A stretch of DNA of 64,000 nucleotides from a virus: positions 89,501 through 153,500 of IMG/VR virus record IMGVR_UViG_3300033153_007754; one strand, written 5' to 3'. A program made the translations under genes and the position numbers. Positions within the stretch are counted from its first letter, which is position 1; each line of letters starts with the position of its first letter. Below the pieces are notes generated by a model, which worked only from the letters and a program-made list of their open reading frames with translations, did not search any database and was not told the origin of the DNA. Below, piece by piece: positions 1-63,818 of this stretch.

Positions 1-2070
1 TATAGTTGCTTGCATTTTAATACGATATTCATAATCAATATTTTCAGCTTCAACAAAAATTTCTTTACTGCATTTCTCACCTTCAATTTCTTCATATCTT
101 TTCAATGTATGATGTTGTGTTATCATTTCAAGAGTTTCATCACCAGATTTAACTTTTCTTACTTGTTGAATACTATAAACAGGTTCAATTCCAGCAGAAC
201 AATTATCATGTGTCAAAGAAATTGAACCATTTGGTGCAACCGTTGTTAAAGATACATTTCTAATACCATGTATTTGTAACTTTTTTTGATATTCACTACT
301 TAATGTTTTAAAATAATCATGATTTTTAAAGTTTTTTATTTCTTGGTTTTCTGAGTGTTTCACCATATATGGAAAAGCGCCCCTTTCAATAGCTAAATCT
401 ATAGATGTCTTAATAGTTTGATTCTTTATAAAAGACATTAAATCATCAACAACTTTAATTGCTTCATCAGAATCATATTTAATACCTAAAAATGCTAACA
501 TATCTGCTAAACCAGTTATACCTAAACCAATTCGTCTACCATCTAATAGTTTTATTTTGTTTGCTAATAATGGTTGTTTATCTTGGTTGATTTCAACGAT
601 ATTATCTAATCCACGAATTAATAATTCAACACTTTTACTTAATTTATCATAGTCTATAACTGCATTTTTCCTAAAAGGATTTATTACAAAATTATGTAAA
701 ACAATAGAACCTAAATTACAACTTTCGTTTGCAGACATAGGAATTTCACCGCAATTATGAACCAAACATGTAGAATCACATACATCATTATTAATATAAA
801 AATTATGGTTATCTTCAACCGTTAAATCATACACATCAATACTTTCATTTAAATCTTCTATTTTTATTACTTTAACAGTATATTCTTGATAATTATATGG
901 ATTAAAATTATCATGGATAGCCATACCCAATGTATTCTTTGCTTCTGTATATGTTCCATCTAGGTTGGCAATTAAATGTTCTGGCGTACATACAAAATCA
1001 AATCCATTACTTAAATATAATTTTATAACTTTTTTATGTCCTGTTTTAAAGGCAATTGCATTTTTAACTTCACAAACCCATTCTTTACCATTGTGTTTGG
1101 CAGAATAAACTGGGAATTCTTTATTTTCTTCAGATAATACCCTAATATCTACACCACCACGACCATCAGCAACAGCAATACTTGTATCACCAGCAAAACA
1201 CGGGTTAGTAGTGACATATTTAAAATGTTCAATCTGATTTGCTGGGTCATTTTTCAATATAGCATCATTAAATAAACAAGCTGGTTCAGCATCGGAATGA
1301 TTGTTATCAATAAATGCTTCCCATATATCACCTACTCTAAAATTCTTTTTAAAGACATCACCATTTTCAAGTTTAAATGCTGTTTCCCATTCAGCATCCA
1401 TTTCATTATTATATACTAATCCCATAAACTTATCTGTCATTTGAATGGATATATTCGCATTTTCTATTTTGGTTTTATCACCATGTTTAATTTTAATGAA
1501 ATCCATCACGTCTGGGTGGTTGATGGAAATTGTTAAAATTAATGCTCCACGTCTTCCGTTTTGTGCTATTATCCCAGTTGCAGTAGAAAATAAATCCATA
1601 AATGAAACCGCACCAGTTGATATTTTTGCGGAATTATTAACTGGTGCACCTTTTGGTCTTAATTTAGAAATATCAAAACCAACACCACCGCCCATTTTCA
1701 TGATGTTCATCATATCTTTATTTGTTGCTGATATGCCATCTATAGAGTCTTTTTCTATATCTAATACAAAACAGTTAGATAGCGTTGATTTGGTGTCATA
1801 CGGGTTATTTAGTGCATATAAAACCCTACCGGCGAATGTTATTAGATTATTATCAAATTGTTCCTTAAATATTTCATACCATTTTGAATAATCATTTTTA
1901 AAAGAATCCCTTTCACACTTTGCCATTCCACCAGCCAGCCTATGATTCATATCTTTTTTACTCATTTCCAATACGTTATTATCTTTATCTGTTAATGCAT
2001 ATTTATTATAAAACACGAATGTTGATAAATCATGTTTATGTTTTTCAAGTAAGACATTTTTCTTTTCCAT
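1..2070 (-). CDS. nrdJ: Class II (B12-dependent) ribonucleotide reductase, 3' end runs off the window; contains an intein
   Basis: Missing from the ORF track because it has no stop in the window. Manual translation from ATG at 2070: MEKKNVLLEKHKHDLSTFVFYNKYAL..., TTNP/CGE active site, ESCNLGSI, TVAPNGSIS, SAGIEPV. Confidence 0.9.
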   Translation of the reverse strand, partial: MEKKNVLLEKHKHDLSTFVFYNKYALTDKDNNVLEMSKKDMNHRLAGGMAKCERDSFKNDYSKWYEIFKEQFDNNLITFAGRVLYALNNPYDTKSTLSNCFVLDIEKDSIDGISATNKDMMNIMKMGGGVGFDISKLRPKGAPVNNSAKISTGAVSFMDLFSTATGIIAQNGRRGALILTISINHPDVMDFIKIKHGDKTKIENANISIQMTDKFMGLVYNNEMDAEWETAFKLENGDVFKKNFRVGDIWEAFIDNNHSDAEPACLFNDAILKNDPANQIEHFKYVTTNPCFAGDTSIAVADGRGGVDIRVLSEENKEFPVYSAKHNGKEWVCEVKNAIAFKTGHKKVIKLYLSNGFDFVCTPEHLIANLDGTYTEAKNTLGMAIHDNFNPYNYQEYTVKVIKIEDLNESIDVYDLTVEDNHNFYINNDVCDSTCLVHNCGEIPMSANESCNLGSIVLHNFVINPFRKNAVIDYDKLSKSVELLIRGLDNIVEINQDKQPLLANKIKLLDGRRIGLGITGLADMLAFLGIKYDSDEAIKVVDDLMSFIKNQTIKTSIDLAIERGAFPYMVKHSENQEIKNFKNHDYFKTLSSEYQKKLQIHGIRNVSLTTVAPNGSISLTHDNCSAGIEPVYSIQQVRKVKSGDETLEMITQHHTLKRYEEIEGEKCSKEIFVEAENIDYEYRIKMQATI
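754..1200 (-). mobile_element. Mini-intein (149 aa, no homing endonuclease) in the RNR active-site NP/CGE motif
   Basis: In-frame insert CFAGDTSIAVADG...VCTPEHLI...DVYDLTVEDNHNFY...LVHN, followed by extein Cys (CGEIP). Intein blocks A, B (TPEH), F and G are visible. Confidence 0.92.
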
Positions 2071-6029: not shown

Positions 6030-6075
6030 TTTTCACTCCTATCTAACATAAGTCATTAATATATTTATGTTTTGT

Positions 6076-6157
6076 GTTTTTTCCATTGGTGGTTTTACCA
6101 TAGATGGGTTTTCCACCTATGGTTTTTCTATTGGTGGTTTTACCGTTTATGGTAAAA
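6076..6157. repeat. Five 15-bp-period iteron-like repeats (GGTTTTWCC-N6)
   Basis: gttttttccattggt / ggttttaccatagat / gggttttccacctat / ggtttttctattggt / ggttttaccgtttat. Confidence 0.85.
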
Positions 6158-6232: not shown

Positions 6233-7015
6233 ATGTCATTAATTAACAATAATATAACAGATAATTCATATTTGATTGACGCTGAATTAAGTCTTAAAGC
6301 AAAAGGATTATTAGGGATTTTAATTAATTTCTCTGGTGAAAACCTTAATATGGAAGACATCAAGGGTTACACCGATAGTGGGGTAACCCAAATAAAAAAC
6401 ACACTGAAAGAATTAAAAAAAGTAGGATATTTATTATCCAATAAAATAAGAAATAAAAAAGGTCGTGTAGATTTTATTTTTAAATTAGAAAATAAAACAC
6501 CTAAAAGTGTTCTGAATGATGATATTAAAAAAATTGAACAAACATCAGTTCCAACCAAAAAAGTGTTACCAGCAGTTAAAAAACATGGTTTATCCGCAAA
6601 GAAAATCATTTCGTTCTATAATAAACAAGTAAAAAAAGGTGGTAACCAACAACAAGCCGTCGTTAATCTTTTACCATTTTTAGAAAAAGGTTTAAAAGAA
6701 GATACAATTAAAAGTGCAATACTTGCATATAAAAACACTTTAAATGATTTAAGATATGCAAGTAAAGTTGAAAACTTTTTCATCAATGACATTGAAAAAC
6801 ATATTGATGAAACAGACAATAGGTATGAATCTTTAACTGAAATAAAAGAGAAAGTAAATTCTTTGACACCTAAACAGGAAAGTGAAATATTGAAGCTGGT
6901 TTTTGATGAAAACCCTAGTTATGATTATGAAGGGTTTAATCTGAAAACATTGTTGGAAGTATCACCAACAACTTACAATCATTATATTAAAAAATATAAT
7001 AGAAATGTTGCTTAG
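6233..7015 (+). CDS. Winged-HTH replication initiator/replisome-organizer-like protein
   Basis: DAELSLKAKGLLGIL...IKNTLKELKKVGYL...RNKKGR pattern, typical of phage and mobile-element HTH replication proteins. Confidence 0.65.
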   Translation: MSLINNNITDNSYLIDAELSLKAKGLLGILINFSGENLNMEDIKGYTDSGVTQIKNTLKELKKVGYLLSNKIRNKKGRVDFIFKLENKTPKSVLNDDIKKIEQTSVPTKKVLPAVKKHGLSAKKIISFYNKQVKKGGNQQQAVVNLLPFLEKGLKEDTIKSAILAYKNTLNDLRYASKVENFFINDIEKHIDETDNRYESLTEIKEKVNSLTPKQESEILKLVFDENPSYDYEGFNLKTLLEVSPTTYNHYIKKYNRNVA

Positions 7016-59043: not shown

Positions 59044-59586
59044 TTATGCATTTTTATTAAATAATTCCACTATTTTAGAATTAAGTAATAATTCAATAAA
59101 AACATTTGATTCACTACCAAACTTAAATTTAATGTAATCAGCCATAGATTGACTATAGCCGAAATCAATATATGTGTTTCTTAAATGTCTCTCAAATCTA
59201 TCTATATCAAATACATATACACCTGTTTCATGAGTTTCTTCAACATCTAAAAAAATATCGTTAAGACCAAATATTTCTTTAAATTTCATAAAAATATCTA
59301 ATAATGTTAAACATCCATCCCCAATTATAAAACCACATGGGTTTGACTTATTTTTAATTTGGGTTTCATATTTGTCTATAACCTTAAGGTGTAACTCACA
59401 ATTTCTTGGTAATGTGTATGCACTATGGTCATTCCAATCTCTACCAACTAATTTTAATTCAAAAAAACTATTCGGGTGAAGCCATTGACCCAAGTCTTTA
59501 ATGTCTTTCATAACACGGCTGTGTTCCTTATTGAATTTATTCGATATTTCAATACTGGTTACATAACCCTTTTGCCCTTTTGTCAT
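59044..59586 (-). CDS. Protein with a partial Rha-like N-terminus
   Basis: VTSIEISNKFNKEHSRVMKDIKDL. Confidence 0.6.
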   Translation of the reverse strand: MTKGQKGYVTSIEISNKFNKEHSRVMKDIKDLGQWLHPNSFFELKLVGRDWNDHSAYTLPRNCELHLKVIDKYETQIKNKSNPCGFIIGDGCLTLLDIFMKFKEIFGLNDIFLDVEETHETGVYVFDIDRFERHLRNTYIDFGYSQSMADYIKFKFGSESNVFIELLLNSKIVELFNKNA

Positions 59587-59684
59587 ACACCCTCACTTAA
59601 AAAAAACTGGAATATCAATCTGATTATCCAATAAAACATTATACTATTTTTAAGAAGTTTTTACAAGAATTAAATTGTGAAAAT

Positions 59685-60441
59685 TTAGTTATTAATCAGT
59701 TCCAGATAAGATATCATTTTATTTCTTAATATTGTGAAAACATCATCAGAATTTAAATCAATTTTGGGTATAACCCTTTTAATTAAATAACTTTCAACAT
59801 CAACATATATATCCGATAACTTTTCATCATGCTGCCTTACCATTTCCCTTATTGATATAGAAGTTCTTTTATCATTAAAATGTTTTCTAGCATTTCTTTT
59901 ACTGGTCATACCCAATATGTTTTTATTCAATTCATTCATTAACCACTGATAGATTGACACATCCCTACCATATAAGCGACCAACACATTTATCCATTTGA
60001 TGGGTAATTAAAGTATCAGTCATCATTTTAGTTAAATCTATAGTTGTCTGGTACTTTTCAATATTTGAAATATATTCCGCCATTTTTCTAAAGGCTGATA
60101 TATACCATTCTTTAATTTCCATAACATCTTTACCTGTGAAACCCATAGCCAACATCATGAAACCATCAAATGATAGAATATACATATTAAGTGATTTATT
60201 CTGTTTTGTCAAGTACTTAGAGCGCTCAAAATTGATGTTGCCAAATTCCGTACTAACCTTTTTTAAAATGTTTTTAATATCTCTAATAACATTCTTATGC
60301 TCTTTATTGAATTTTTCAGCTATCGCCAAACTGGTTGTGGTAGATTGCATTCGTTCCATTATTTCAGAAATATCTAAACCTTTAAGTCTTGGTTTTGATG
60401 GCTTCAACGTTGTTCTGGAACTAGTTGTTTCTTTTGTCATA
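59685..60441 (-). CDS. rha: Rha-family phage regulatory protein
   Basis: TTSLAIAEKFNKEHKNVIRDI, YILSFDGFMMLAMGFTG, YISAFRKM; start placed at the ATG after GAGGT. Confidence 0.85.
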
Positions 60442-60557
60442 TTTACCTCACATATAAAGCAGATAACCAAATCAATTACCCTTAAGAGATAATATCATTT
60501 TTCATAACATATTGCAAATTCTACATTAATATAATAAAAAAGAGATTTACTGTGTGT

Positions 60558-60602
60558 GGTTTTACCGTAGATGGAAAAACCACCTATGGTAAAACCGTCT
60601 AT
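60558..60602. repeat. Three 15-bp iteron-like repeats with dyad symmetry
   Basis: ggttttaccgtagat / ggaaaaaccacctat / ggtaaaaccgtctat. Confidence 0.85.
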
Positions 60603-60862
60603 GGGATAATTTTAATAATATTTATTTCTACTTTATTATTCATATAATTAATAACTAAATTAATATTTATTTCACCTAAATAATATGTTCGATTTTGATA
60701 AAAACCATCAAACCCACTTGTATTATATTCAATATTATTCTTATATAATATTTCTTCTACTTGTATATGTATAGGGGTTTTACTAAAATTATTAACCTTT
60801 TTTATCAATTTTGATATATCTAATGCAGTATGTAATTTAAATTTATTAATTATCTCACTCAT
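60599..60862 (-). CDS. Hypothetical protein
   Basis: AGGTGG RBS; 87 aa; very AT-rich. Confidence 0.5.
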   Translation of the reverse strand: MSEIINKFKLHTALDISKLIKKVNNFSKTPIHIQVEEILYKNNIEYNTSGFDGFYQNRTYYLGEININLVINYMNNKVEINIIKIIP

Positions 60863-60921
60863 TTATTCCACCTAAAAAAATTACATTATTATATCATTAT
60901 CCATATAATTTATAAAATAGT

Positions 60922-60996
60922 ATATTCTCCATTGATGGTTTTACCGTGGGTGGTTTTTCCACCTATGGTAAAACCATTTACAGAAAACCTACCAAC
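60922..60996. repeat. 15-bp iteron-like repeats with dyad symmetry
   Basis: ggttttaccgtgggt / ggtttttccacctat / ggtaaaaccatttac plus degenerate flanking units. Confidence 0.85.
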
Positions 60997-61074
60997 CATA
61001 AATAAGTTTAACTTTTTTAGAAATATTTATTTTTTTCTTGATTAAATAAGTAAAATCTGTTATTTTGTTTCTAT

Positions 61075-61640
61075 TATTGGTTGCACGGGATGTTATCCTG
61101 TGATATTGAAGCTCTTTAAGGGTGTGTGAACATACAAAGAAATGCAACCAACACACATACCCTTAATACCCATATTGTGGTGATATGGGATGCAAATTAA
61201 GACATAACATGTAAACAAGCTTAAACCCTCTATTATAAAGGTTTTGTTTGAATGTAACTTCCCCATAAAAGTTACAATTTTACTGTTTGGTGAACATAAG
61301 CAACTTACCTATAAACAGTAGAATAAAACAGGATGAAGTGATTACGTTTAAATATTTTATACCCGTGTAGTGTGAAAGATGCGTGACATATTGTATACAT
61401 GGCAATATGACTTGGTTATACAAGACTCTGTATTCATAGCTACACCATACCAAGATAAAATAAGCAATTATTTTTCCACGTAATCTTCAATAATATTTTT
61501 TAAGATGAATTCTTTAAATCGTTAGATATATGTTTAAAAAATATGAAATTTCTTTCCCTCAATTAATTAAAACTACCATAACTGGTTAAAGTTACATTTA
61601 TGTATCTACCAGAAAGGGGGGTATAAAGAACCGTCCAGTA
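61075..61640 (+). ncRNA. Candidate large structured non-coding RNA (about 560 nt)
   Basis: No ORF; TTGATT-17 nt-TATTTT promoter at 61038-61066; about ten stems found by eye, with G-U pairs on the plus strand. Confidence 0.55.
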
Positions 61641-61940
61641 TTACTATAATAGTATATATAAATACTACTATATAGTATCATTGTATAATATTATTATAAG
61701 TATTACTTAAATATCACTTTTAAATAAACTAATTTAAAAAAATAATAAATTTATATATATAAAAAAAGTTAATAAATTAAAAAACAATAAAAAATAAAAT
61801 AAAATTATTATTATTAAGATATTTCAAAAATAAAGATGTACTCAATCGTCCATCTTATATTTTCATAATATCTATAGAAAGTATATTACTTTTAGTTTTA
61901 CTTATAATATTATTATATATAATATATATAGTAATTAGGA
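61640..61940. other. Extremely AT-rich tract (candidate DNA-unwinding element)
   Basis: Long runs of almost pure A/T, no ORF, at the coding-strand switch. Confidence 0.45.
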
Positions 61941-61949
61941 GTTAAAAAA

Positions 61950-62618
61950 ATGGAAAAATTAAAAAAAGAATTAATAAAAAAACTAAAAAGAAATAAATTT
62001 AAAATATCAATAATTGAAAATATAAATTTTGGAATACAAATTAAAGCATTATATAAAAATAAAAAATATACATTTAGAATATTTAAATCTAAAAAAAAAG
62101 GAATACATATTGATTATTCATTAATAAATGATAAAAAAATAATTAATATGTTTAAAAATAACAAGAAAATGGAACTTAAAAATATTATTAATAATACTAC
62201 TTATAAGTATGATAAAAATGAAATTGGATTTGGATTTTATGAAAATAAATCTAAAAGTATGTTAATATTATCTTCTGTTTATTTACATAATAAAGATATT
62301 TTAGAAAAAATTGATTTGAATGGAATTAGTAAAACATATGATAATAGATTATTAATGAGTTTTTATATTTATATAATAACAAATACTCAATATAAATTAA
62401 ATATTTTTGAAAGTAAAAGATTAGAAAAATTAAGAGATAGATTTGATAATAAAATTGATTTTAATAACTTTTATATTCAGGAAATAGTTAAAAGACAAGA
62501 TTACACATTTAATAAAAATAATATAAACACTGATGAATTTATTATATCTGAAACAGGTTTACATACTAAAATTTCAAAGATATTTTCAAAGACTGTTTAT
62601 AAATTATATAGATATTAA
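61950..62618 (+). CDS. Degenerate RNase HIII-like protein (catalytic motif lost)
   Basis: ENINFGIQ...FRIFKSKKKGIHIDYS N-domain; EIGFGFYE where IGxDE is expected; LILSSVYL. Confidence 0.4.
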   Translation: MEKLKKELIKKLKRNKFKISIIENINFGIQIKALYKNKKYTFRIFKSKKKGIHIDYSLINDKKIINMFKNNKKMELKNIINNTTYKYDKNEIGFGFYENKSKSMLILSSVYLHNKDILEKIDLNGISKTYDNRLLMSFYIYIITNTQYKLNIFESKRLEKLRDRFDNKIDFNNFYIQEIVKRQDYTFNKNNINTDEFIISETGLHTKISKIFSKTVYKLYRY

Positions 62619-62625
62619 AAATCAA

Positions 62626-62690
62626 TTGACAAACTCTTTAAAATCCATATAATTTAAATGATGGGTAATTAAACCTATATTAATGGAGGA
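62626..62690 (+). promoter_or_regulatory. PeSL-like cassette 6
   Basis: TTGACA-16 nt-TATAAT, ATGGGT-AATTAA-ACCTAT, GGAGG. Confidence 0.7.
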
Positions 62691-63339: not shown

Positions 63340-63408
63340 TTGACAAATCCAAAAAAAACCAATATACTGTAGATAGATGATAATTAAGCCATCGTTTACA
63401 TGAGGTTC
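63340..63408 (+). promoter_or_regulatory. PeSL-like cassette 7
   Basis: TTGACA-17 nt-TATACT, ATGAT-AATTAA-GCCAT, GAGGT. Confidence 0.8.
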
Positions 63409-63410
63409 AA

Positions 63411-63818
63411 ATGACTACTAATAAATATATCTCAAATGAAATAGTGAAATACTGGGATGAAACATATGAATCTTTTAATGGTATGGAAGTTATCGCACCA
63501 ACAACATATAGGTCGGAACTTAAAACTACAATTTGGGATTTTTTTAATAATTTATCATCAACTGATGGTATGGAACAAATGCATATTGACATTTTATTAA
63601 AAAATGGTAATTATTTAAGTTTTTATTTTGATGACATTTCAGATGTTGTTGATAATGATAATTATTCAATAACTTTTCATCATGATGGTGAAACATATAA
63701 TACAACTAAATTATCAACACAAGCTGTATTATGTGCTGATGTTTATGGTTTATTATTGAAAAGAAGTTTATTCACCAAAAAAGAAATAGATTCATTAAAA
63801 AAAAGATACCAACATTAA
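63411..63818 (+). CDS. Early hypothetical protein
   Basis: 135 aa, downstream of cassette 7. Confidence 0.6.
   Translation: MTTNKYISNEIVKYWDETYESFNGMEVIAPTTYRSELKTTIWDFFNNLSSTDGMEQMHIDILLKNGNYLSFYFDDISDVVDNDNYSITFHHDGETYNTTKLSTQAVLCADVYGLLLKRSLFTKKEIDSLKKRYQH

Follow-up and report, generated by a model that had tools for sequence, protein, structure and literature searches.

A candidate structured non-coding RNA in the longest ORF-free gap of a distantly T4-like phage genome

The 5' part of the longest gap between the genes of a large phage is a credible but unproven new RNA: credible because it is predicted to fold better than chance, and unproven because it comes without relatives, a clear promoter or stop signal, or a match to a known family. 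Our tentative reading is that 250-415 nt at this end (61075-61330, perhaps to 61490) form a lineage-specific structured non-coding element that would act in cis on the adjoining tract. That it is a functional structured RNA of one role or another is a view to which, on the modelled fold, we lean. The DNA analysed (the window, 64,000 nt) comprises bases 89501-153500 of a 153.5-kb virus record; positions are those of the window unless the genome is named, and counts given for the genome cover the whole 153.5 kb.

The ends of the record overlap by 114 bp, which indicates a circular assembly, and the GC content of the genome is 26.8%. As far as its predicted proteins indicate, the phage is a very distant T4-like myovirus; a portal protein, a large terminase, a gp23-type capsid protein and a tail sheath are recognisable, and the capsid protein shares only ~25% identity with its counterparts in cultured phages. 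No other ORF-free gap of the genome is as long as the one in question (60863-61949, 1087 nt); the next in length measure 554-673 nt, and a survey of gap lengths showed the phage to be otherwise tightly packed. To the left of the gap all genes are read leftward, among them an 87-aa ORFan that ends at 60862 and two Rha-domain proteins. To its right genes are read rightward from 61950 on, where a K/N-rich ORFan of 222 aa has ~10-20% GC in 200-nt windows. The two Rha-domain genes (59044-60470) are adjacent, encode 261 aa with the full domain and 180 aa with part of it, and lie beside the divergent control region. Neither the window nor the whole genome contains tRNA or tmRNA genes.

Stops occur in all six frames of the gap, and the small ORFs of the stretch gave no family matches. 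A codon-usage score was trained on genes of this phage; the best of the six frames, with stops ignored, scored -1.5 to -10, compared with a median of +11 for coding DNA and a mean of +1 for shuffled sequence. A recent pseudogene or recoded gene is unlikely because the score is negative in every frame and stops are present. We therefore rejected a coding or recoded gene, there being neither a frame with a codon signal nor a family match.

The initial annotation had described ~560 nt of the gap as highly structured and non-coding, and had proposed folding against shuffled controls as a check. When compared with dinucleotide shuffles (60-200 per segment), 61075-61330 folded better than its controls, with a z-score of -4.03 for plus-strand RNA and none of 200 shuffles as stable. 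Minus-strand RNA of the same segment gave z -2.56 (0 of 100 as stable), and DNA parameters gave z -3.64 on the plus strand (0 of 200) and -2.48 on the minus strand (3 of 200). For the longer segment 61075-61490 the RNA values were -3.85 (plus, 0 of 60) and -2.42 (minus, 1 of 60), and 61330-61490 folded separately gave -2.0 (plus-strand RNA, 5 of 100). The last part, 61490-61640, is unstructured beyond chance, since its plus-strand RNA z-score of -0.55 was not significant and 25 of 100 shuffles were as stable. High structure thus holds for ~250-415 nt (z -4.03 and -3.85) and not for these final 150 nt. In a composition-corrected scan of the whole genome in 150-nt windows, the plus-strand run from 60876/61026 onward was the most persistently structured, and folding of the other long gaps of the genome revealed no comparable structure. 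The plus strand is also unusually structured at genome positions 1-500, past the right end of the window on the circle, where the 150-nt window 151-300 has z ~-4.0; nothing accounts for this beyond a promoter cassette at ~500.

The predicted fold is a string of six local hairpins, and its centroid nearly equals the minimum-free-energy structure. Every stem listed in the initial annotation was present on direct reading, at the coordinates given there. On the plus strand, H1 (61084-61102) has 8 bp and a 3-nt loop (pair probability P 0.90), and is followed by H2 (61116-61166; 13 bp, P 0.95), whose 25-nt loop carries GTGAACATA...GCAAC. H3 (61169-61189) has 8 bp and a 5-nt loop, H4 (61216-61250) has 5+5 bp, and H5 (61253-61276) has 8 bp and an 8-nt loop (P 0.96). 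H6 (61277-61324; 12+5 bp, P 0.97) again carries GTGAACATA...GCAAC, here in a loop of 11 nt. Further 3' on the same strand, an inner hairpin CATATTGT/GCAATATG (61387-61409, 8 bp, P 0.96) is robust. The remainder of this 3' domain (61340-61485, plus strand) is less certain, with enclosing long-range stems that vary with the context folded. The long-range stem GATTACGT/ACGTAATC (61340-61485) reported earlier did not hold up, having a P of 0.01-0.17 in context and reaching 0.7 only when the 3' part was folded alone. An A/U-only hairpin of 12 bp and a small hairpin (61493-61612, plus strand) fold no better than shuffles. We treated the occurrence of CATATTGT in both H3 and H7 as chance, the structural register being different.

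The plus strand folds better than the minus strand by 1.2-1.5 z units with RNA and with DNA parameters, and its unpaired bases are 47% A, compared with 35% on the minus strand. A-rich unpaired bases are typical of structured RNAs. As the minus strand scores lower (-2.4 to -2.6), we favour the plus strand, with moderate confidence only. Most helices exist on both strands, and the earlier argument that mismatches are mostly G-U on the plus strand is weak: the confident helices contain ~10 G-U pairs on the plus strand and 9 on the minus strand.

The complementarity described between a 5' strand and the loop of H2 is exact. TTGGTTGCA (61077-61085, plus strand) is the perfect complement of TGCAACCAA (61143-61151) with a duplex energy of -12 kcal/mol, and is partly complementary to the H6 loop. 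Shuffled flanks contain a match of 9 nt in 4.8% of cases (p ~0.05 only). An H-type pseudoknot stacked on H2 would be sterically feasible and is a possible candidate.

H2 and H6 share a motif that is a new feature, absent from the initial annotation. In both hairpins GTGAACATA straddles the start of the loop, covering 3 bp at the end of the 5' arm and the 6 loop bases that come next. GCAAC stands deeper in the loop, and in each case it has its complement in the GUUGC of the 5' strand. The pattern GTGAACATA-N(0-15)-GCAAC has two copies in the 153.5 kb, both of them here, on the same strand and in the same structural place, 164 nt apart; further hairpins of the H2/H6 type were not found elsewhere in the genome. 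Only these 9+5 nt are common to the two, and their stems differ. When 13 stem pairs were compared in the register of the motif, 6 were unchanged, 2 had changed on one side to G-U (plus strand), 5 had changed on both sides and none was broken. The comparison suggests a duplicated recognition hairpin but does not prove one: we noticed the motif post hoc, and any two hairpins placed in register will retain their pairs by construction.

Signals for transcription of the stretch are at the level of chance. The promoter proposed to drive it, TTGATT-17-TATTTT (61038-61066, plus strand), matches at 8 of 12 positions, which lies below the threshold of our scan and is expected by chance in AT-rich DNA; promoter-like matches numbered 188, against 183 expected. 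An intrinsic terminator was not found for the stretch. The phage has an early promoter cassette made up of an A-tract, TTGACAaatcc, TAnnnT, a GATGG...CCATC hairpin (GATGGcaattaaGCCATC), an RBS and an ATG. It occurs at 62626-62690, at 63340-63415 and ~20 more times genome-wide, ahead of many small genes, and is absent from the structured stretch and from the 222-aa gene at 61950. The late-promoter motif TATAAATA was not enriched.

Downstream of the hairpins, a purine tract, AGAAAGGGGGG (61609-61621, plus strand), lies just before an AT-rich tract that begins at ~61640. The G6 run pointed out in this tract (61616-61621) is real and is the only run of at least six G on the plus strand of the 153.5-kb genome. 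We take the tract to resemble a retroviral polypurine tract (an A-rich run ending in G6). The AT-rich tract (61640-61949, 310 nt) has ~10-16% GC in 200-nt windows, and of all 300-nt windows in the genome 61731-62030 has the lowest GC content, 10.3%. Within the tract, 178 nt are bracketed by an inverted repeat of 28 nt (61684-61711 / 61890-61917, 86% complementary). The intergenic tract and the 222-aa gene make up an extreme AT-rich block (61640-62620), far below the genome mean of 26.8% GC.

Upstream of the element, three 15-nt TGG(T/A)nnnnCC units (60936-60980) make up a near-palindrome (60929-60976). Of all 150-nt windows in the genome, the one at 60876-61025 is the most stable, on both strands. 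We assign these units to the promoter that drives the 87-aa gene leftward and not to the RNA. Such units, 15 nt long and partly palindromic (TGGTTTTACCnTnGn-like), stand in arrays of three to six at 60557-60601, 60936-60980 and 6075-6150, the last of these 55 kb away. Each array lies directly upstream of the -35 of a promoter; the genes concerned are a Rha gene, the one for the 87-aa protein and one at 6233. From their placement the units look like regulator sites for promoters and not like origin iterons, and the arrays are a candidate family of operator or activator sites for a phage regulator.

Within 61040-61640 we found no iterons, DnaA boxes occur at the expected density, and no initiator gene adjoining the element is recognisable, the flanking genes being ORFans. 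An origin based on DnaA boxes was rejected since these are not enriched, as was one of the iteron/DnaA type, given in addition that the 15-nt units recur at other promoters and that no initiator adjoins. The cumulative GC-skew minimum of the genome falls at the gap. Within the leftward arm, genes on the plus strand have a skew of +0.20 and those on the minus strand one of -0.24; because the skew tracks the coding strand, the minimum mainly marks the strand switch and is not independent evidence of an origin. The replication gene content does not bear on the structured element. Pfam searches of the genome gave no match to gp59 (N-domain) or to the C-domain of T4 RNase H, both run without a positive control, and none to the DnaG zinc ribbon or Prim-Pol. 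A weak Toprim_2 match lies outside the window, at genome positions 65211-65399, in a 327-aa frame that probably encodes a gp61-like primase.

Searches for relatives returned little. Rfam 15 models gave 0 matches at the gathering score in the whole window and, at E<10 (60800-62000), chance-level matches only, the best of them on the palindrome outside the element. No similarity to the element was found by blastn in phage and plasmid collections, nor were paralogues found within the genome, and exact and gapped DNA patterns retrieved only chance seeds from viral, metagenome and genome collections. Only one other contig carries the locus, and its sequence is 100% identical. Scanning viral contigs with peptide patterns of the flanking genes and the capsid protein yielded nothing; the searches found no homologue of the 87-aa protein and no real homologue of the 222-aa protein, both of which are ORFans. 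The Rha protein has one 55% relative, on a non-syntenic 2-kb contig with a different neighbour, and the best relatives of the major capsid protein are 43% identical and occur on short contigs only. By these comparisons the phage is a singleton among the collections searched, from a lineage without cultured relatives.

How might such an element act? A plus-strand RNA would most likely be read rightward out of the divergent early control region. H2 and H6 would display GUGAACAUA...GCAAC at the stem-loop junction and, because both show the same motif there, may be two binding sites for one partner, perhaps a protein, perhaps GUUGC in the 5' strand of the RNA itself. Action in cis on the adjoining tract is our best guess. 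The transcript would run through AGAAAGGGGGG into the most AT-rich DNA of the genome, and an RNA-DNA hybrid formed or licensed there would start replication, like the ColE1 RNA II pre-primer or a T4 R-loop origin. We counted for this guess the unique G6, the GC minimum directly downstream and the position where the two transcription arms diverge. Counted against it were the lack of a homologue and of a convincing promoter or terminator, the slight G-U asymmetry, and the p of ~0.05 for the pseudoknot. A further point against is that, for an R-loop origin of the T4 type, a promoter and an unwinding element suffice, without any need of a 400-nt fold.

The proposal that the stretch encodes a replication-primer RNA, also made in the initial annotation, survives in part. 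The stretch abuts the lowest-GC tract and has the unique G6, but the skew reflects the coding strand, there is no enrichment of DnaA boxes and the supposed iterons recur elsewhere. What may still support an origin is the 10.3% GC window and the purine tract with its unique G6 before the AT-rich tract. We regard an origin-linked role as doubtful. By analogy, a pre-primer RNA of ~400-550 nt could end in the polypurine-like AGAAAGGGGGG and form an R-loop in the AT-rich DNA, with the two hairpin loops as control point; this is quite unlikely, and a leader or cis-regulatory role is improbable.

The element might instead be one of the large phage ncRNAs that act in trans as free-standing molecules, with a role outside replication; it could, for instance, serve as a scaffold or decoy for proteins through two identical hairpin loops. 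This reading is, in our view, about as likely as the origin-linked role. It fits the longest gap of the genome, the z-score of ~-4, the top-ranked structured run and the duplicated H2/H6 motif, and abundant ncRNAs are known in ~1-kb ORF-free gaps of lytic phages (PMC7567579, PMC9241854). It fits less well with a stretch that has no promoter-to-terminator unit, no Rfam family, no tRNA neighbours and no conservation.

That the stretch is a non-functional spacer or long-decayed DNA, with hairpins that are chance or relics, is unlikely. A singleton sequence without conservation or transcription signals, with 150 unstructured nt at its 3' end and a GC content of ~30%, like coding DNA, is consistent with such a history. 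Yet a spacer would have to reach a z-score of ~-4, with 0 of 200 shuffles as stable, and supply the top-ranked structured run of a tightly packed phage, while retaining no residual codon signal and carrying a duplicated loop motif.

A DNA-level element would place the function in the inverted repeats themselves, as duplex or as extruded or single-stranded DNA, with any transcript incidental; the repeats would bind proteins or signal priming in an origin or control region. With DNA parameters the fold is significant on both strands (z -3.64, 0 of 200, and z -2.48), most helices are available to either strand, and the divergent control region lies beside the AT-richest DNA. We consider it rather unlikely, as the loops, at 25, 11 and 8 nt, are large and on one strand rich in A, the plus strand is consistently better, and the stretch 61040-61640 has neither iterons nor an enrichment of DnaA boxes.

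The initial annotation also suggested that the RNA might be the partner of an array-less Cas complex. We consider it very improbable that the element supplies a guide or partner RNA to such a complex, here of type IV-B, after processing by the phage's Cas6. In favour of this idea, H2 and H6 carry a common motif at a spacing of 164 nt. Against it, they share only 9+5 nt with stems that differ, show no repeat-spacer organisation and have no further copies in the genome, no CRISPR array (at least two near-identical 24-40-nt repeats with spacers, beside cas genes) was found, and the cas operon (38.5-42.5 kb) is 19 kb away.

Placing the stretch in the size class of ROOL (RF03087) and GOLLD (RF01998) RNAs, as had been proposed, proved to be an analogy only. 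The element resembles them in size class and in its association with phages, but their Rfam models did not match it even at E<10, and its hairpins are local and simply strung together, with nothing of an ornate multi-junction fold. tRNA genes are frequent neighbours of ROOL and GOLLD, whereas this element has no neighbouring tRNAs.

A ColE1-type RNA II pre-primer has its own promoter several hundred nt upstream of the origin, with an antisense RNA I over its 5' end, and acts through a persistent RNA-DNA hybrid and RNase H processing at the origin. Like the RNA II of ColE1/pMB1, the element extends over several hundred nt of structured non-coding sequence, immediately before the DNA that should unwind most easily, with a G run near the transition from RNA to AT-rich DNA. 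Unlike RNA II, to which it has no sequence or model similarity, it lies in a T4-like phage and not in a plasmid. For an antisense RNA I unit, we found neither an Rfam RNAI match nor a minus-strand promoter-like site over 61075-61200, and the upstream promoter of ColE1- and T4-type origins is represented here by chance-frequency matches, such as the sigma-70-like site of 8/12 at 61038-61066.

The T4 R-loop origins oriF(uvsY) and oriG(34) consist of a promoter and a ~50-bp unwinding element, without a large folded RNA. The element shares with them the T4-like lineage and an AT-rich, unwinding-type tract downstream of possible promoters; it differs in its large predicted fold. R-loop origins are reviewed in PMC4412123.

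If real, the element would give virulent phages one more large structured RNA that belongs to no class, at a place where replication and both early arms likely begin. It would bear on what such ncRNAs do in phages, and perhaps on RNA-primed origins outside plasmids. At present it is a single sequence that offers a well-delimited target (61075-61330, H2 and H6) for transcript mapping. ICP1 has an orphan ncRNA of ~800 nt that is abundant by RNA-seq (PMC7567579), as are lnc001 and lnc002 of phage K (PMC9241854). Those RNAs were detected as transcripts by RNA-seq, whereas ours has been read only from DNA and showed no blastn similarity in the phage collection. Like them, it belongs to no Rfam family and occupies a ~1-kb ORF-free gap in a large virulent myovirus.
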